The notes below the pieces were generated by a model. The model ran no database searches and had not been told where the DNA came from. It was given only the letters and a program-made list of their open reading frames with translations. 64,000 bases of DNA from an uncultured Gammaproteobacteria bacterium (GTDB lineage: Bacteria; Patescibacteriota; Microgenomatia; UBA10105; UBA927): NCBI GenBank assembly GCA_964527425.1, contig CAZGOA010000005.1:15290-79289 (forward strand). Direction: 5' to 3'. Position 1 is the stretch's first letter. Every line of letters begins with the position of its first letter. Both the position numbers and the translations under genes were made by a program. Positions 15,761 through 59,618 of the stretch are shown here, in pieces.

Positions 15761-15884
15761 GTCCCCCAGCCTTGACCTATCTTCCCGGATCTTTTGAAAT
15801 CAGGTATTTTGGGCGCTGACGCGTTTCACTTCTGAGTTCGAGATGGGATCAGGTGGTACCACATCGCTCAAAAGACTGGAAGAC
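15761..15884 (-). rRNA. rrf: 5S ribosomal RNA
   Basis: The reverse complement contains the universal 5S core CCACCTGATCCCATCTCGAACTCAGAAGTGAAACG. Helix I closes with GTCTTCCAGTC/GGCTGGGGGAC. It is flanked by an inverted repeat (AACCGCTT...AAGCGGTT) and a downstream T-run. Confidence 0.85.
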
Positions 15885-15994
15885 ACAAAAGCGGTTTAGA
15901 ATCACTTTTATTTTTTAAAAAACAATATTCATAGCAAGTAATTGCGCAAAAGGGGCAATTTATCTTTTCAGCATAAAATCACCGGAGAACTTTC

Positions 15995-19232
<3,238 letters not shown>

Positions 19233-19485
19233 AAAAGGTCCATGTAGACTTCTCTATATGGATTCAAATTGTTCCCGGCGATAAATTATGCTGCATAAAA
19301 GGAATATAAATTACCCCTTTTGCTGCAACTACTCATTCATTATTCAACAACAGAAGACCCTCTGTTGTTGATGCTATCAATATTGATGTCATTTGTTTGA
19401 CTTGTTAAGGTGCAATACTCAAATATGGAAGAAAGAAATTAATGTCTGTATATTCAAACATCAAATTCTTTATCCCATTGTAAAG

Positions 19486-19558
19486 TGGACCTGGGGGGAG
19501 TCGAACCCCCTACCTCCTCATTGCAAATGAGGCATTCAACCAGGTAAACTTCAGGCCC
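19486..19558 (-). tRNA. tRNA-Ala (anticodon UGC)
   Basis: 73-nt cloverleaf on the minus strand: GGGCCTG acceptor with a G3:U70 pair (alanine identity element), anticodon loop TTTGCAA, T-arm GGGGGTTCGACTCCCCC, discriminator A. No CCA is encoded. Confidence 0.85.
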
Positions 19559-19562
19559 GACT

Positions 19563-19590
19563 AAAAAACCCCGCCTTTTGCGGGGTCCCC
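19563..19590 (-). terminator. Intrinsic-terminator-like hairpin (CCCCGC-loop-GCGGGG plus T-run) located 4 nt upstream of tRNA-Ala inside the rRNA leader
   Basis: Minus-strand RNA reads ACCCCGCAAAAGGCGGGGUUUUUU. It lies between the predicted rrn promoter and the tRNA 5' end. Confidence 0.5.
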
Positions 19591-31440: not shown

Positions 31441-32364
31441 TTAATGTATTTCTCCAAACACCTCTGCCATCATACATCGCGCACTTCCTCCGCCTATACG
31501 TTCAATAGTAGGTACATCTACAGATACAATTTCACCATGTTGCTCTAGTTTGGATACTTGTGAAGGTGTAAAAGCACTGTATGCAGTTGTAGACATTACA
31601 ATAATGCGCTTATTCTCTATAGTCTTTAGTTGCAACACATTTCCACAATACTCATTCATTTGTTTCATGGTTATAGGAATAATTACTTTGCCAATTCTTT
31701 CTAATTCTTCTACAACTTCAGTACGCATATCAGTATCTTTTATAGATTCAAGACAAATAATGACAAATTGATCCCCTATATTCATCGTGACGTTAGTATG
31801 ATAAATTGGCACATTATTTGAGTCATATGCACGAAATAATATTCCCTTATACCCCATTTTTTTACACCAGGCCTCAAATTCTTTTTTTACTGTCCTTGGA
31901 GATTCCATCCCAAACGCGACTTTTCTTTTTCTATCCAATACGAGACTTCCTGTACCTTCTAAATATCTGCCTTCTTCTTCATGTGGGGATAAATCAATTA
32001 TTTTTGAAACCGGTAAACCTTCCTGAAAAAGTAACTGGCGTAATTCCTTAATTTGACGTTCTGCTCTTCTATTTTCCGCTAACATTGGATAGATAATAAG
32101 AGTCCCATCTTGATGATGAGAAAACCAGTTATTGGGGAAAATCGCATCCGGAGTTATTACATCACTTCGACTTGACAATACGATCACTTTTACTCCTTTT
32201 TCTTTTAACGTATTCACCATGTTTGAAAATTCAGTTTGTGCCTGAGTGTGTACATCAGCATTGGAATCTTCGTGCTGAAACGGATTACTCTGCGCCGTTT
32301 GAGAATTAAATCCAAAATATTCTGGAAATACCATTACAACTGTTTGGGTTAAATATTCCATCAC
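31441..32364 (-). CDS. Amidinotransferase-fold hydrolase (arginine deiminase/DDAH/CtlX-like)
   Basis: 307 aa. The C-terminal GGGSARCM catalytic-cysteine motif is typical of the guanidino-group-modifying enzyme superfamily. Confidence 0.6.
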   Translation of the reverse strand: MMEYLTQTVVMVFPEYFGFNSQTAQSNPFQHEDSNADVHTQAQTEFSNMVNTLKEKGVKVIVLSSRSDVITPDAIFPNNWFSHHQDGTLIIYPMLAENRRAERQIKELRQLLFQEGLPVSKIIDLSPHEEEGRYLEGTGSLVLDRKRKVAFGMESPRTVKKEFEAWCKKMGYKGILFRAYDSNNVPIYHTNVTMNIGDQFVIICLESIKDTDMRTEVVEELERIGKVIIPITMKQMNEYCGNVLQLKTIENKRIIVMSTTAYSAFTPSQVSKLEQHGEIVSVDVPTIERIGGGSARCMMAEVFGEIH

Positions 32365-42921: not shown

Positions 42922-45900
42922 TTAATTTATTTTTTGTTTAAACCATTGGTAATAAACAACTGGGATAAATAGCAACATAATAATAGAAGCAATTAACAAC
43001 CCTGAAATAATTGCACCACCTAAACCTCTCCACAACGGATCTGCAAGTGTAATAGGAAGTAAACCAAATACAGTTGATAACTTTGTTAAAATAATTGGTT
43101 CCATACGGCTAGCCCCTGCGTCTGCCAATGATTCTTCAAATTGCATTCCTTCCTTAAGATTGAGATTTACTTTATCAACGATAAACATAGAATTGGTTAC
43201 AACTATTCCAAACAATGATAAAACACCGATTAGAGCAGGGAACGATAAAGGTGTTCCTGTTATAGCAAACGCATAAAATACGCTTGATACTGCAAGAGGT
43301 ATGACTAATAATACTAAAACAGCCTGTCGAAACGACCCAAACTGTAACACCATTGTTACTAAAATAAGCAATACAGAAACACCCATTGCTTGCAAAATCG
43401 ACTGAATTGATTTTGCATTTTCTTCATTAACACCACCAGTTTGCCAATTATATCCCTCGGGCAAATTCAAACTTTGTGCAAAACTTTCTAGATCCTTACC
43501 TAAGTCAGCTACAGAAAATCCGGGACGCGCGCCTGCAGTTACTGTTATTGATCGTTTTCCATTGACCCGAGTAATTTGAGTTGGATTAGGTTTGAGCTCC
43601 AATCGACCGAGTGACAACAATGGTACATCCCCTTGTGGAGTAATGACGGACAGTCTACCTAATGATTCAGGTGTAGGGTTATCTGAACCAAATGTAAATC
43701 GAACTGGGACTTTCTCTGCTTGTCCATCATCAAAATTTACTTCCTGAAGTGTAAATCCACTGCCATAAATACGTGTCCACAAACCTAATGTATCCATTGT
43801 TAGTCCACGCTGTGCCACACTATCCTGATCTGGTACAAATACAATAGCACTAGTTCCCTCATTAATTGACTTTGCTGTATTTGTTATACCAGGTTGCTTT
43901 TTTAAATATTCCTCAATACGATCAGCATATTGATTTAATATACTCAAATCATCACCAAGAAGTTCTATCTGAATATCTGCCCCTGCAGGCGGACCACCTG
44001 ACAATTCAACAACAGAAACTTGAGCACGAGCATACTCTTTAAATTCATTTCTCAAATCTTCTGCAATCTCAATCGATGAAACAGGACGCTTCTCCTCGGG
44101 AGGAAAATGCATCGTAATAAGACCTTTATTACTAGAATCACCTCCACCTTCAAAACCGGTTGGAGCACTTGTGCCTATTTGAGCAAGTAAATAGGTTGCA
44201 TAGGGATTAGACTTTACCCTATCAAGAACAGCTAATGTTTCTTGTTCTACCCGTTCAAGAGTAGTGCCACTGGGCATTTCTACATCCAAAAAGATTCTAT
44301 TGCCATCTACTTTTGGAAAAAATTCATTTTTTACAAACCCAAATGGAATCAACAAGAATCCAATAAAAGAATACACAACAATTGCAAACACCACTTTTCT
44401 ACGAGCACTTTTAGAAGATAATATTCGCAACATTAATCGTTTATAAGACTGCGAAAATCCGTCAAGTGAGACAACTCCATGATTTGATGAATAAACGATA
44501 AATTTAGTAATTCTACTATATCCAGGTACACGATGAATTAAAGTAATAACATACTGAGATAGTATTGACCTTACTCGGAAAAAAACAGCAACAATTAAAA
44601 CAAAGAGAATTCCAACTGGAATTAACACTGGATTTACTCCAGCTATTGCTGCTATCAAACTGAATAGCAACAATAGAACTATACCTTTTGAAAGCACTAT
44701 AACCCTTCTTGGTATTGATGGCTTTAAAATAAGCATCATGATCGGAAGAGTAATCAATACTGCGATTGCAGTTGAAGAAACCATCGTTACTGTAACGACA
44801 ACTGGTATAGGCTTAATAAATTCTCCAATAATTCCTGTTGCTAATAATAGAGGTACAAACGACCATATCGTAGTAAGTGTAGTAGACCAGATCGGTACAA
44901 TAGTATCCTTCCAGACTAATAAACCAGTTTCTAATGTAGTAAATCTACCTGTTTTGTAATAGGTAGTCATAGCCGAAATGACCACGATAGTATCGTCAAC
45001 CAATAACCCTAATGAAATTAAGAATGCAAATAATGTCAAAAAATTAATTGACATACCAAATACTTGCATGAGTGCAAAAGAGGCTAAAAAGGTTAATGGT
45101 ACAGTAAAAGAAGAAATTACAGCCTGTCTTAAGCCTAAAAATATAAACAAACAGGCAAACACTAGTAATATAGTGGTTCGAAATTCTCCAAGAATATCAT
45201 CAAATTGAGTAGAAATTTCTTCTGCTGTATTACTTATAGTGTTGTAAGAAAAACGTCCTTCACTGGCATCTATTTCTTCATCAACAATGGCTGTTGCAGC
45301 ATTAGCACCATCTGTTATCGTAGAAGTTAACGTTTTAAATACACTGAAGGTAACTACTCTCTTTGGATTTGTATCACGTGTAACCAGATATGCTGCAGGT
45401 TGATTCGGTTCAGATTTTTCTTCAATCGTAGCAATATCACCTAATTTTACAGAATTTCCTTGTAACACCAATCGCAAATTTCGCACATCATTTACTGTTT
45501 CTATACTAGGATCAATAGTAAGTGAAAACGAATTTCTAGCAGAATCGATAGTACCTGCAGGATAAGAACTTGTATTTGCTCGTAGCAAACTTGATAACTG
45601 AAGCGGATTAATTTGATATTGTGCTATTTTTTCAATATCTACTGTCACAGTAATTTCTTGTTCTTCTAAACCTCGAACAGTTACCGTATCTATTTTAGGA
45701 TGATCTTCTAGTCTGTTGCGTAACCTCTTTGCAAAACGTTGCAAACTCCCAATATCTTCAGTAGTCGTAAGTGCAAACTCCCATACTGGTACATTTTCAA
45801 AATCAAGAGCATTTACGTCAGGGTTACTCGCATCTTCAGGCAAATTACGAACTGTATCAACTGCAGCTTGAACATCGTCTGCTGCAACATCTCGATCAGT

Positions 45901-46257
45901 TGTACTCGTAAATTGAATAGTAATTACAGAAACATTATTTCTAGAAACAGAATTAATCGTATCTAAACCTTCAAGTGATTGCAGTTGATTTTCAATAGGA
46001 ATAGTAATCAAAGACTCAACGTCATCAGGTCCAGCTCCTGGTAATGCTGTAACAACAGTAACAATAGGAATTTTTACCTCAGGGTTGAGTCGTTTAGGCA
46101 AATTTGAATATGCAACTAAACCTATAAAAACAACTACTAACAGTAATAAAATAGTAAGTCGAAAATTTCGCAAATACGAAGCCAACGGCCCAGTTAATAA
46201 CTGAGTGTTAAAAGAAATTCTCTGTAAATATGACTGTTCAGCCGTATCTTGAACCAT
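42922..46257 (-). CDS. RND-superfamily efflux transporter permease (AcrB/HAE-like)
   Basis: 1111 aa with 12 TM helices and two large periplasmic loops. Confidence 0.88.
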   Translation of the reverse strand: MVQDTAEQSYLQRISFNTQLLTGPLASYLRNFRLTILLLLVVVFIGLVAYSNLPKRLNPEVKIPIVTVVTALPGAGPDDVESLITIPIENQLQSLEGLDTINSVSRNNVSVITIQFTSTTDRDVAADDVQAAVDTVRNLPEDASNPDVNALDFENVPVWEFALTTTEDIGSLQRFAKRLRNRLEDHPKIDTVTVRGLEEQEITVTVDIEKIAQYQINPLQLSSLLRANTSSYPAGTIDSARNSFSLTIDPSIETVNDVRNLRLVLQGNSVKLGDIATIEEKSEPNQPAAYLVTRDTNPKRVVTFSVFKTLTSTITDGANAATAIVDEEIDASEGRFSYNTISNTAEEISTQFDDILGEFRTTILLVFACLFIFLGLRQAVISSFTVPLTFLASFALMQVFGMSINFLTLFAFLISLGLLVDDTIVVISAMTTYYKTGRFTTLETGLLVWKDTIVPIWSTTLTTIWSFVPLLLATGIIGEFIKPIPVVVTVTMVSSTAIAVLITLPIMMLILKPSIPRRVIVLSKGIVLLLLFSLIAAIAGVNPVLIPVGILFVLIVAVFFRVRSILSQYVITLIHRVPGYSRITKFIVYSSNHGVVSLDGFSQSYKRLMLRILSSKSARRKVVFAIVVYSFIGFLLIPFGFVKNEFFPKVDGNRIFLDVEMPSGTTLERVEQETLAVLDRVKSNPYATYLLAQIGTSAPTGFEGGGDSSNKGLITMHFPPEEKRPVSSIEIAEDLRNEFKEYARAQVSVVELSGGPPAGADIQIELLGDDLSILNQYADRIEEYLKKQPGITNTAKSINEGTSAIVFVPDQDSVAQRGLTMDTLGLWTRIYGSGFTLQEVNFDDGQAEKVPVRFTFGSDNPTPESLGRLSVITPQGDVPLLSLGRLELKPNPTQITRVNGKRSITVTAGARPGFSVADLGKDLESFAQSLNLPEGYNWQTGGVNEENAKSIQSILQAMGVSVLLILVTMVLQFGSFRQAVLVLLVIPLAVSSVFYAFAITGTPLSFPALIGVLSLFGIVVTNSMFIVDKVNLNLKEGMQFEESLADAGASRMEPIILTKLSTVFGLLPITLADPLWRGLGGAIISGLLIASIIMLLFIPVVYYQWFKQKIN

Positions 46258-46308: not shown

Positions 46309-47772
46309 TCACTTAAAACTTACCGTATCTCCACTTAAAACATCTCTATTAAGAATTACTTGATCTTCCTGACTTATGCCGGATCTAATTTGAACATATG
46401 ATCCAAACACTGTTCCCAATTCCACTTCTTTTGGCACAACAGTATAAACACGCTCACCTGAATTACTAGCAACATATAGCAGTGCTGTATCTTGTGTTTG
46501 AAATATTGCATCAATTGGAACATAAGGAACTGAGGCAGTCGCTTTAACCTGACCTATTGGCATTTGAACTTGTATAGACATACCTTGAGTAACCCATTCA
46601 CTTTGCTCTTCAGAAAGGGTAAATAGTACGGTATGTAACGTTCCATCAGTCGGCTCTGTAGAAATATAGCGTGGACTAAGTTCAATAGTTTGACCTCCGA
46701 CAATTAAATTGCTCTTCTCAAGCCGTGATAGCTGTTTTGCAATGTCTGACGATACAGTAACAACTACATGAGCTACATTTTTATCAGCAGTAATTGTTGC
46801 TAGTACAGTTCCAGGATTTACTGATTGCCCAGGATATACATGAATTCTTTCTATAATACCCGTTTCAGGCGATGCTGGGTACATTAATGATTCACTTATC
46901 TGTGCAATCGTTAAGTTTAATCTAGCTATTTCTTTACCCAAAGCTAAAGATCGTTCCTCTACTTCCAACTGTTTAATAGTTAAATCCTTTGATAGGTTGG
47001 ATAGTTGAGCTCCTTCTTCATCACTACTTGCTTGATATTCACCAGATCGCAAAGCGCTCTTAAGAGCGGATAGCCCTGATAACACTCCTGATTTAGAAGA
47101 CTTAACCTGCGTTATAAGAGCACTATTCGTACCCTCTGCATTATTCATTTCTAATTCAGAAATTTGCTCATCTAATGAAAAAATTATTTGTTCATTTAGT
47201 GAAATTTGAGTTCTTGTTGCATCAAATGACTGAGCAGTAATTTCCCTTAATTGATCATTCATGGCATCAGTTTTCTCTGCAACTTCCCTGCGTTTATTTA
47301 TTAGTTCCTGTTGAGCAGGATAATTTTCTTCAGTAACTGTATAATTTTGTTGTGCAATTTGTCTTGAAACACTTTGCAAAGTTCCACCTTGATAGTTTGT
47401 ACTTAATCCTAGCAGTACTTGACCTTTCCATACTCTTTGACCGGGAGTAACATTAATGTATTGAACAATACCCGAAGATTGAGCAACGATGTTAATCACA
47501 CCACTTTTTTCGACATTTCCAGAAAAAGAAATTTTCGGTGCTTGTGCAATACTAAATATTTCTACCTCTTTTAATGAGGTTTCCGCTTCAGGTAGTGCAT
47601 CAGCAGGTTTTCGCAATAAATTTCCTAAAATAATAATTAAAAGCAGAATTCCTATTAATCCAAAAAAAGAAGTCATCGGTCGTCTGTCAATAAAGTTAAA
47701 AAAAGTTTGTCTGTAAGAAGAAATGCGTTCTTTCAATAGGCTAAACCGGGTTCTTGTTTGGGTTTCTTTCAT
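46309..47772 (-). CDS. Efflux transporter periplasmic adaptor (membrane-fusion protein, HlyD family) with long coiled coil
   Basis: 487 aa. N-terminal TM anchor, beta-barrel/lipoyl segments flanking an extended coiled-coil hairpin. Lies directly upstream of the RND permease. Confidence 0.8.
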   Translation of the reverse strand: MKETQTRTRFSLLKERISSYRQTFFNFIDRRPMTSFFGLIGILLLIIILGNLLRKPADALPEAETSLKEVEIFSIAQAPKISFSGNVEKSGVINIVAQSSGIVQYINVTPGQRVWKGQVLLGLSTNYQGGTLQSVSRQIAQQNYTVTEENYPAQQELINKRREVAEKTDAMNDQLREITAQSFDATRTQISLNEQIIFSLDEQISELEMNNAEGTNSALITQVKSSKSGVLSGLSALKSALRSGEYQASSDEEGAQLSNLSKDLTIKQLEVEERSLALGKEIARLNLTIAQISESLMYPASPETGIIERIHVYPGQSVNPGTVLATITADKNVAHVVVTVSSDIAKQLSRLEKSNLIVGGQTIELSPRYISTEPTDGTLHTVLFTLSEEQSEWVTQGMSIQVQMPIGQVKATASVPYVPIDAIFQTQDTALLYVASNSGERVYTVVPKEVELGTVFGSYVQIRSGISQEDQVILNRDVLSGDTVSFK

Positions 47773-47902
47773 AAGATACTGGATTATAGCAGAAAAAATC
47801 TCACCTTACTAGTACTATAGGTATAAGTATCTATTTATTGAGTATATTTATATTATTTAAATAGTTTAGGATGTGTTGGTATTTTTGCAAACAAAAGCAA
47901 CC

Positions 47903-47956
47903 CTTCCGATCCCGGATCGGTAGCCTCATCCGATCCGGGATCGGAAATACTATAAG
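47903..47956. repeat. GC-rich palindromic double-hairpin element, copy 1 (CTTCCGATCCCGGATCGG-TAGCCTCAT-CCGATCCGGGATCGGAAATACTATAAG)
   Basis: Two 15-nt perfect palindromes that are reverse complements of each other are separated by 9 nt. A homologous copy lies at 59448-59501. Confidence 0.7.
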
Positions 47957-48012: not shown

Positions 48013-48567
48013 TTGATTCAAATGCGACTCTTTGCGATAGTGATTTTTATTATGAACGATACAGATAATACACCTAACCAAATACAAGATGCAGAATTGA
48101 TAGAAGATAACGATTCTTCAACTGAAGCTTCCCAGCTTTCTCAATCCGAAGATACTGAAGGAGGACTTTCACAAGCTGGTATGATCCTAGAATTAGAAAC
48201 GATGATAAAAAATCATATTTCTGGTATATCAACAAGACGAAATGAACTTAAGAAGTTTAAAGAAATGGTTGTGGATGCCTTTAAAAATGACTCAACCTAT
48301 CAAGAAGTCGAAGAAGCATATAAAAAAGCTACAAAAGTAAAAAAAGATATTAAAGCAAACATCATGCAGCAACCAGGTGTACAAGAAGCAGCAGAAAAAG
48401 TACGTGATATCTCAACTGAAATTAAAGAGCTGGAAGGAGCTCTGTCTGATTATGCAAGAGAATATCAACGACTGTCTGGTTCAAATGAAATAGAAGATAA
48501 CGAGGGAAATGTTCATGAAATAGTGTATATTGCAAAACTTCTGAAAAAAAATCAGAAGCAAAAATAA
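48013..48567 (+). CDS. Hypothetical acidic coiled-coil protein (start uncertain: TTG 48013, ATG 48022 or ATG 48052)
   Basis: 184 aa. Hydrophobic N-terminus followed by an Asp/Glu/Ser-rich region and helical heptads. Confidence 0.45.
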   Translation: MIQMRLFAIVIFIMNDTDNTPNQIQDAELIEDNDSSTEASQLSQSEDTEGGLSQAGMILELETMIKNHISGISTRRNELKKFKEMVVDAFKNDSTYQEVEEAYKKATKVKKDIKANIMQQPGVQEAAEKVRDISTEIKELEGALSDYAREYQRLSGSNEIEDNEGNVHEIVYIAKLLKKNQKQK

Positions 48568-59424: not shown

Positions 59425-59447
59425 ATATTAGTTTCCCATAAGCCTAA

Positions 59448-59501
59448 CTTCCGACCCAGATTCGGATGTGTCTACCGCTCCCGGAGCGGAAATACTATAA
59501 G
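59448..59501. repeat. GC-rich palindromic hairpin element, copy 2 (degenerate first arm; second hairpin CCGCTCCCGGAGCGG; conserved GGAAATACTATAAG flank)
   Basis: Aligns end to end with copy 1 (CTTCCGA...CGGAAATACTATAAG). The second hairpin retains pairing through compensatory A>C / T>G changes. Confidence 0.65.
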
Positions 59502-59618
59502 TCTATAAAGAATTTCTACCCAACTCACGCTCAGAGAAATTTCTGCATCCTGATTGGAATACTCCACAGTCTCACAAGTTTTGGCCCTTTTTGACCAACG
59601 GCTATTACATAATAAACT

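Follow-up and report, generated by a model that had tools for sequence, protein, structure and literature searches.

A short hairpin-forming element in a Roizmanbacteria-like CPR bacterium, most likely a REP- or PATE-like dispersed repeat

REP sequences and the REPINs built from them have been described in Pseudomonas and Enterobacteria, where they are mobilised by RAYT tyrosine transposases; the tetranucleotide GTAG is one of the features of a REP. The modules are short imperfect palindromes, dispersed in tens to hundreds of copies per genome, and they flank a cognate RAYT gene that is present once. PATEs are miniature derivatives of insertion sequences of the IS200/IS605 family; they have sub-terminal hairpins and insert 3' of a fixed tetra- or pentanucleotide. 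HUH enzymes in general act on a hairpin that has a single-stranded cleavage site on its 3' side, as at the right ends used by the IS200/IS605 transposase TnpA, and single-strand transposition by HUH/Y1 enzymes makes no target-site duplication. Correia elements, RUP, ERIC and the Rickettsia palindromic elements measure 100–150 nt, usually carry target-site duplications (TA for Correia) and are present in tens to hundreds of copies. A REPIN consists of two inverted REPs that form a hairpin, whereas REP singlets are decaying remnants which are less conserved than the doublets; an example REPIN in that study is 89 nt long (PMC3337134). Our literature search found no paper describing REP-like elements, or the repeat content, of CPR/Patescibacteria.

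Here we analyse a 54-nt palindromic element that occurs twice in a window of 64,000 nt, the whole stretch of DNA under study. We regard it as a real feature of this genome, a hairpin-forming, lineage-specific dispersed repeat of an ordinary kind, which is most likely non-autonomous and REP/REPIN- or PATE-like.

Structure of the two copies

A preliminary description of this DNA had located two copies of the element, and its coordinates and sequences for both proved accurate. The parts of the two copies and their neighbours are listed in Table 1. The repeat unit measures 53–54 nt and comprises two inverted palindromic modules of 15–17 nt, a 9-nt spacer and an asymmetric 3' tail of 10 nt. The weakly similar left flank (47892–47902) probably lies outside the mobile unit, as assembly breaks set the left boundary at 47903/4.

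Table 1 Coordinates of the element copies, their parts and the neighbouring features in the window.
Feature	Position	Strand	Remarks
Copy 1, intact doublet	47903–47956	+	17-bp inverted repeat, 9-nt loop, 10-nt asymmetric tail (from sequence and folds); layout C + TTCCGATCCCGGATCGG + TAGCCTCAT + CCGATCCGGGATCGGAA + ATACTATAAG
Copy 1 left arm, TTCCGATCCCGGATCGG	47904–47920	+	sub-palindrome CCGATC-CCG-GATCGG at 47906–47920
Copy 1 loop, TAGCCTCAT	47921–47929	+	GTAG formed by last G of left arm and loop, 47920–47923
Copy 1 right arm, CCGATCCGGGATCGGAA	47930–47946	+	sub-palindrome CCGATC-CGG-GATCGG at 47930–47944
Copy 1 3' tail, ATACTATAAG	47947–47956	+	identical in copies 1 and 2; no mirror image on the left side
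Possible left flank of copy 1, CAAAAGCAACC	47892–47902	+	compared with CATAAGCCTAA at copy 2, 7/11 identical, weak
Copy 2, decayed element	59448–59501	+	5' hairpin down to 4 bp; loop inverted relative to copy 1; 3' hairpin and tail intact
Copy 2 3' hairpin, CCGCTC-CCG-GAGCGG	59475–59489	+	A:T of copy 1 replaced by C:G (one compensatory pair)
CTAC abutting 5' foot of copy 2 3' hairpin	59472–59475
ACR_tran gene (RND operon)	42922–46257	minus
RND membrane-fusion gene	46309–47772	minus	left neighbour of copy 1
Gene for 181-aa protein	48022–48567	plus	right neighbour of copy 1; no convincing domain
Convergent kbl/YgjP gap	59425–59618	.	194 nt, holds copy 2; kbl stop 24 nt before copy 2

The long 17-bp hairpin proposed earlier for copy 1 was confirmed. 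The inverted repeat is perfect, and its RNA fold is a 17-bp hairpin of −36.7 kcal/mol (z = −6.8), which none of 200 shuffled sequences equalled; the corresponding value with DNA parameters is −21.8 kcal/mol. The two 15-nt palindromes attributed to this copy are also present, but they are built as 7+1+7 nt, so that each small hairpin has a stem of 6 bp and a loop of 3 nt.

The resemblance between copies 1 and 2 is far beyond chance. As reported in the preliminary description, they align end to end without gaps, and 41 of the 54 positions are identical. When copy 1 was compared with the whole window by blastn, copy 2 was retrieved at E = 4e-5 and otherwise nothing rose above noise; a repeat search of the window likewise placed the two in one family. 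The 15-mer CGGAAATACTATAAG occurs exactly twice in the window, and the hairpin of copy 2 is the only perfect one with at least five G/C in a 6-bp stem in the 64 kb outside the rRNA/tRNA region. Both elements have a GC content of 54%, compared with 28–37% in the intergenic surroundings and about 35% in the genome. The ends are exactly common to both copies, namely CTTCCGA at the 5' side and 15 of 15 nt (CGGAAATACTATAAG) at the 3' side, while the interiors differ. Conserved ends around an unconserved interior are the pattern predicted for recognition by a transposase or nuclease.

The decay of the first arm in copy 2 was noted earlier and is evident here as well, with both the 5' hairpin and the long hairpin lost. 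The RNA fold of this copy consists of two small hairpins only (z = −1.1 and −1.4) and is no better than those of shuffled sequences. The loop, whose inversion had escaped the preliminary description, reads ATGTGTCTA in copy 2; it agrees at 7 of 9 positions with ATGAGGCTA, which is the copy 1 loop in reverse complement, as opposed to 3 of 9 in the direct sense. By blastn, the cores of the two copies also align better inverted (E = 4e-5) than direct (1.5e-4). Since the arms of copy 1 are perfect, it is therefore the loop or core that is flipped relative to the tail. As a result of the flip, GTAG adjoins the left hairpin in copy 1 and CTAC the right hairpin in copy 2.

Paired changes in the second hairpin of copy 2 had been taken as covariation that argues for selection on the structure. 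Pairing is indeed kept, but the compensatory change between the copies is confined to a single pair of the 6-bp stem, where A:T became C:G, which turned CCGATC in the 3' module into CCGCTC. We estimate the chance that two stem substitutions land paired and complementary at about 3%. A single compensatory pair is suggestive; however, intra-hairpin template switching (quasi-palindrome correction) from arm to arm gives the same pattern, explains it equally well and accounts for the flip besides. Because copy 2 is without the 5' and long hairpins and folds like shuffled sequences, there is no consistent selection on the overall structure, and the earlier claim was overstated.

The preliminary description had also proposed a check for target-site duplications around the copies. 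None was found at copy 1 or copy 2, whether the arms or 47903/47956 were taken as the ends.

Gene context and further copies

Among named organisms, the closest matches to the glycine C-acetyltransferase (kbl) encoded next to copy 2 come from Candidatus Roizmanbacteria and other Patescibacteria (65–68% identity), and the closest sequence of all is 78% identical. Judging from these protein similarities, the host is a Roizmanbacteria-like CPR bacterium. The gene identities given in the preliminary description (ACR_tran and membrane-fusion protein, kbl, YgjP-like) were all right; kbl itself is a class I/II aminotransferase for which JGI gives the name glycine C-acetyltransferase. The distances given for copy 1 needed small adjustments. 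The RND membrane-fusion gene, placed about 175 nt away, starts at 47772, which is 131 nt from the near end of the element and 184 nt from its far end, and the plus-strand gene, placed 55 nt away, lies 57–66 nt away depending on whether it starts at the TTG at 48013 or at the called ATG at 48022. Both copies are intergenic, and their contexts are opposite: copy 1 sits in a divergent promoter gap and copy 2 in a convergent one. No regulator gene is adjacent to either element, and no effect on the RND efflux operon or on kbl is indicated.

The locus of copy 2 can be compared with that of the closest relative, whose kbl is 78% identical and which has the same order of epimerase, kbl and YgjP genes. 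In that genome the stop codons of kbl and YgjP overlap by 8 nt, and both proteins end at residues homologous to those of the present genome. As the nearest relative has overlapping stops, the comparison indicates that the 194-nt gap, including copy 2, was gained in this lineage. In more distant relatives kbl is followed by other genes, and no homologue of the element was found in the relatives' loci. The rest of the gap (59502–59618, 117 nt) is also absent from the closest relative and contains an AT-rich inverted repeat, AGAATTTCT...AGAAATTTCT.

To look at the element across samples we used Logan contigs of SRA runs, which are assembled with k = 31, and retrieved contigs of the same species by exact-protein look-up. 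Apart from such assemblies, the organism was encountered only in an NCBI metagenome-assembled genome. Not one of the 23 contigs that carry the neighbouring gene at 48022–48567 crosses copy 1. Most right-hand contigs start at 47927 (5 of the 8 listed, one of which stands for 14 similar places), and the first 30 nt of these contigs, that is k−1, are CATCCGATCCGGGATCGGAAATACTATAAG, which ends exactly at 47956 (...TATAAG). The left-hand contigs end at 47932/47933, which is 30–31 nt past 47903/4, and in other samples at 47941. The unit boundaries given by these breaks agree with those given by the comparison of the two copies. Copy 2, on the other hand, is crossed by all 10 independent SRA contigs and its sequence is invariant in them. 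The break pattern at copy 1 is what a de Bruijn graph produces when it branches at the borders of a repeat. Within the 64-kb window every canonical 30-mer is unique, and copy 2 shares just 15 nt with CATCCGATCCGGGATCGGAAATACTATAAG. Since the breaks lie k−1 from the ends and the window has no repeated 30-mer, a near-identical paralogue should reside elsewhere in the same samples. Such a paralogue must be identical to copy 1 over 45–54 nt, at 47903/4–47956 or in some strains at 47912–47956, and must have different flanks. Thus at least one further copy almost certainly exists elsewhere in the genome. Two other causes for the breaks were considered and rejected. Loss of coverage at the hairpin does not account for breaks exactly k−1 from the conserved ends in many samples, and flipping of the loop in the population, as the sole cause, would predict a right-hand break at 47917 rather than the observed 47927. 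Copy 1 is a reproducible breakpoint of short-read assembly in all 23 contigs examined, and the element in this way limits the contiguity of metagenome-assembled genomes.

No further copy was found in the genome as it could be walked, which covers about 115 kb of contiguous DNA from −25.4 kb to +89 kb in window coordinates. A profile HMM built from the two copies (nhmmer) retrieved nothing new in any fetched locus of the same species or in the loci of relatives. Two contig ends, near −25.4 kb and +83.9 kb, were considered as possible element copies and rejected, as both are tRNA genes. At the sites of copies 1 and 2 no presence/absence polymorphism was found among the strains. An 80-aa chimera of four open reading frames through the element, used as a query for partial open reading frames at contig ends, yielded 37 candidates, of which none scored. 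The repeat family has at least three members, two observed and the third deduced from the contig breaks, and its density is low.

Searching wider collections by pattern and BLAST gave nothing related to the element. Among viral contigs the 15-mer tail pattern had 75 matches, none with a palindrome, and the 17-nt arm had two chance matches in GC-rich contigs. The pattern CCG-N9-CGGAAATACTATAAG had eight matches in GTDB species genomes, all in unrelated taxa and none palindromic, and CTTCCG-N23-53-CGGAAATACTATAAG had eight chance matches in JGI metagenomes. BLAST against plasmids gave a single marginal match of 32 nt (E = 0.1) to an Embleya record, and BLAST against phages gave none. These searches indicate that the element, in this exact form, is absent from the collections scanned.

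Relation to known repeats and alternative readings

The element resembles several described systems. As in REPINs, two short palindromic modules are inverted around a spacer and form one long hairpin; copy 1 has this arrangement and copy 2 retains only the 3' module. Both copies are extragenic and lack a target-site duplication. The intact doublet, copy 1, is the better conserved of the two, and the single surviving module of copy 2 resembles a REP singlet. In addition, GTAG at copy 1 and its complement CTAC at copy 2 abut the foot of a hairpin, which with n = 2 could be chance; the position of the tetranucleotide relative to the hairpin differs from that in the REPs of E. coli. The differences lie in the size of the unit (54 nt against 89 nt for the published example), in the 10-nt tail that is present on one side only, unlike canonical REPINs, in an apparently low copy number compared with tens to hundreds, in that no RAYT gene is found in the window or its flanks, and in the host, a CPR bacterium. 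Two copies observed in about 115 kb is a low number for a REP family.

The likeness to PATEs concerns the ends. The element has a sub-terminal hairpin at each end, its ends are asymmetric with no true terminal inverted repeats, it lacks a target-site duplication, and a stretch of about 10–12 nt between the 3' hairpin and the right end is conserved, which is also the case at the right end of IS608. However, no clear target tetra- or pentanucleotide is common to the 5' flanks, ...GCAACCC and ...CCTAAC (n = 2), the two hairpins are mutually complementary, which those of IS200/IS605 ends need not be, and no TnpA or TnpB gene was seen in the window or flanks. With Correia elements, RUP, ERIC and the Rickettsia palindromic elements it shares the character of a short, GC-skewed, hairpin-forming dispersed repeat that lies between genes near promoters and gene ends in an AT-rich genome, but it is shorter, is without target-site duplication and is seen in few copies. 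REP/REPINs are the closest match in architecture and population behaviour, and a miniature IS200/IS605 derivative is the closest in end structure. We do not claim membership in either family, as no RAYT or TnpA was seen, the tail is atypical for REPINs and no target can be read from two copies.

We propose that the element belongs to a small family of extragenic palindromic repeats, dispersed and specific to this lineage, that is like REP doublets (REPINs) or IS200/IS605 PATEs, and we give this reading a probability of roughly 0.55. That the element belongs to a dispersed repeat family of some kind is very probable. In our proposal, the element itself would be inert, and a transposase of the HUH tyrosine (Y1) type, acting in trans, would copy or move it in single-stranded form. 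This enzyme would recognise the hairpin and make its cut a set distance further 3', where ...ATACTATAAG ends, a mode that would leave no target-site duplication. The layout of the conserved unit, a hairpin and then 10–12 nt of single-stranded tail on the 3' side alone, is that of HUH substrates. Copy 1, with one or more near-identical paralogues at other places, would be a doublet of recent origin that is still intact. Copy 2 would be old and in decay, having retained nothing but the ends that are recognised, namely CTTCCG, the 3' hairpin and the tail. Template switching within the hairpin, and not selection on RNA structure, would have produced the perfect arms, the one compensatory pair and the flip of the loop. 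This specific HUH mechanism of spread is offered tentatively, as somewhat doubtful. Neither the window nor the precomputed Pfam lists of the flanking loci (about 115 kb) showed a transposase, whether of the Y1/HUH type or any other. A strain-variable 296-aa open reading frame at locus L139 was considered as a transposase and rejected, as it has no element ends and no Pfam family on record. An integron attC site was likewise rejected: the left flank of copy 2 reads GCCTAAC but has no GTTRRRY partner, and copy 1 is without the motif.

Besides a MITE/REP-like repeat, the preliminary description had proposed a protein-binding palindrome and a structured RNA leader. Of these, the repeat is favoured by the assembly breaks, by the opposite contexts of the copies and by the absence of the gap from the closest relative, while the RNA leader was not supported. 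A structured RNA, be it a leader, a 3'-end stabiliser or terminator, or an sRNA, would have its hairpin kept by selection at the RNA level. The very stable fold of copy 1 (z = −6.8), the one compensatory change in the 3' hairpin and the distance of just 24 nt from the kbl stop to copy 2 are consistent with it. However, searches with Rfam 15 returned no family at the gathering threshold, and only generic miRNA-hairpin models matched, at 18–22 bits against gathering scores of 57–83, or of 48–83 for the best match at 22 bits. Neither copy has a terminator-like site on either strand or a T-run, the tail being AAATACTATAAG, and so neither conforms to the definition of an intrinsic terminator as a GC-rich stem-loop followed by a T-run. 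Copy 2 folds like shuffled sequences, with the long and 5' hairpins not conserved; the RNA would differ between the copies since the loop is inverted; and a 3' element is impossible for copy 1, which is upstream of both its neighbours. Such an RNA is very improbable. A -10-like sequence in the tail (TATAGT/TATAAG), also pointed out earlier, was rejected as a promoter. Its only promoter-like match, TAAACA-16-TATAGT on the minus strand, occurs at copy 1 only and is not above shuffle expectation, the -35 lies in unique flank, and copy 2 has neither a downstream gene nor a counterpart. We consider it similarly improbable that the palindromes are bound by a protein, either as the operator of a dimeric transcription factor or as a nucleoid or restriction-modification site (GATC, CCSGG). 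In favour are the perfect dyad symmetry of the modules, the place of copy 1 in the divergent control region of the RND efflux operon, and the 3' module of copy 2, which one paired change keeps palindromic. Yet copy 2 lies between convergent stop codons, where there is nothing to control, and the change of the half-site from CCGATC to CCGCTC would not be easily tolerated by a protein that reads sequence. There is no adjacent regulator gene, and GATC (201 observed, 206 expected) and CCGG (57 and 61) occur in the window at the expected frequency. Binding by a protein would also leave the asymmetric conserved tail and the near-identical paralogue unexplained.

The remaining readings concern how the copies arose. 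A classical DDE-type MITE would have arisen from an insertion sequence by deletion, and its 17-bp terminal inverted repeats would be what is recognised. The repeats of copy 1 (TTCCGATCCCGGATCGG and its complement) are indeed perfect, and the element is small, extragenic, multi-copy and lineage-specific. But direct repeats are missing from the flanks of both copies wherever the ends are placed, and the absence of a target-site duplication, which the preliminary description had not weighed, argues against a DDE-type MITE and fits HUH/Y1 transposition. The unit extends 10 nt past the right arm only, so that its true ends are not inverted repeats, and the element thus departs from the definition of such a MITE, which has inverted repeats at its true ends together with a target-site duplication. 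Moreover, at 43–54 nt it is below the usual size of MITEs, and no insertion sequence with these ends was found in about 115 kb. Of the two parts of the label MITE/REP-like, then, the second is favoured and the first is very unlikely. Slightly less so, though still unlikely, is that the copies are functionless, immobile remnants of one or two ancient duplications whose palindromes persist through hairpin-templated repair. The count of two copies in about 115 kb, the decay of copy 2 and the lack of a visible transposase agree with this view. Against it, the shared segment is just 54 nt long with sharp boundaries in otherwise unrelated intergenic DNA, a near-identical copy is deduced at a third, unlinked locus, and segmental duplication does not normally move a lone 54-nt piece.

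The host genome

The genomes of CPR/Patescibacteria are small and tightly packed, and a palindromic repeat family there would extend REP-like elements to reduced genomes. If such a family is present, a domesticated or parasitic HUH transposase is presumably present in CPR bacteria too. It is a rather speculative suggestion, which we do not expect to hold, that the element represents the first REPIN-like, HUH-transposase-driven hairpin repeat family in CPR, with a minimal 54-nt unit in which the loop flips and flops against a fixed asymmetric cleavage tail. Should it be true, it would imply that a single-stranded hairpin intermediate is active in a very small and streamlined genome, a setting in which repeats are not expected to persist.

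Strain-variable loci were seen on both sides of the window. About 20 kb to the right of its end (locus L148, 1–5300, compared with L147/L150, 1–5290), a strain-variable integrated element lies at the 3' end of a tRNA gene. One strain carries genes for TraG-like P-loop, M23 peptidase, AAA_13, HTH and PLD-like proteins; other strains have ATP synthase, L19 and DUF1361 genes at this place, and the strains rejoin at GCGGGCTCACTTAATTAATTG. The contig break at about +83.9 kb is due to this strain junction at a tRNA site and not to a palindrome. About 22 kb to the left of the window start (L139, 15740–16740, compared with L140, 15740–15920), one strain has a cassette of about 830 nt that encodes the 296-aa protein mentioned above, with no Pfam on record and no repeat ends evident, and in another strain a short segment of unrelated sequence takes its place.

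In CPR bacteria it is a trait of the rRNA genes to be unlinked and to contain insertions. At 15764–19558 on the minus strand the window contains tRNA-Ala, 23S and 5S genes with no 16S upstream, and the 23S match spans 3227 nt against a model of 2925 nt, which indicates an insertion of about 300 nt; no group I or II intron family was detected there at the gathering threshold. A GC-rich perfect hairpin, ACCCCGCCTTTTGCGGGGT, lies at 19568–19586, 10 nt from tRNA-Ala at the head of the 23S-5S unit, and may be a processing or terminator stem. About 15–17 kb to the right of the window end (L126, 23–1411; L147, 8899–11389), a gene for the large subunit of RuBisCO adjoins one for phosphoribulokinase (PRK), close to NiFe-hydrogenase and Hyp maturation genes and apparently in a CPR genome. 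Finally, a gene on the minus strand at 31441–32364 encodes a 307-aa protein that matches the Pfam 'eukaryotic' dimethylarginine dimethylaminohydrolase family from end to end (E = 3e-98).
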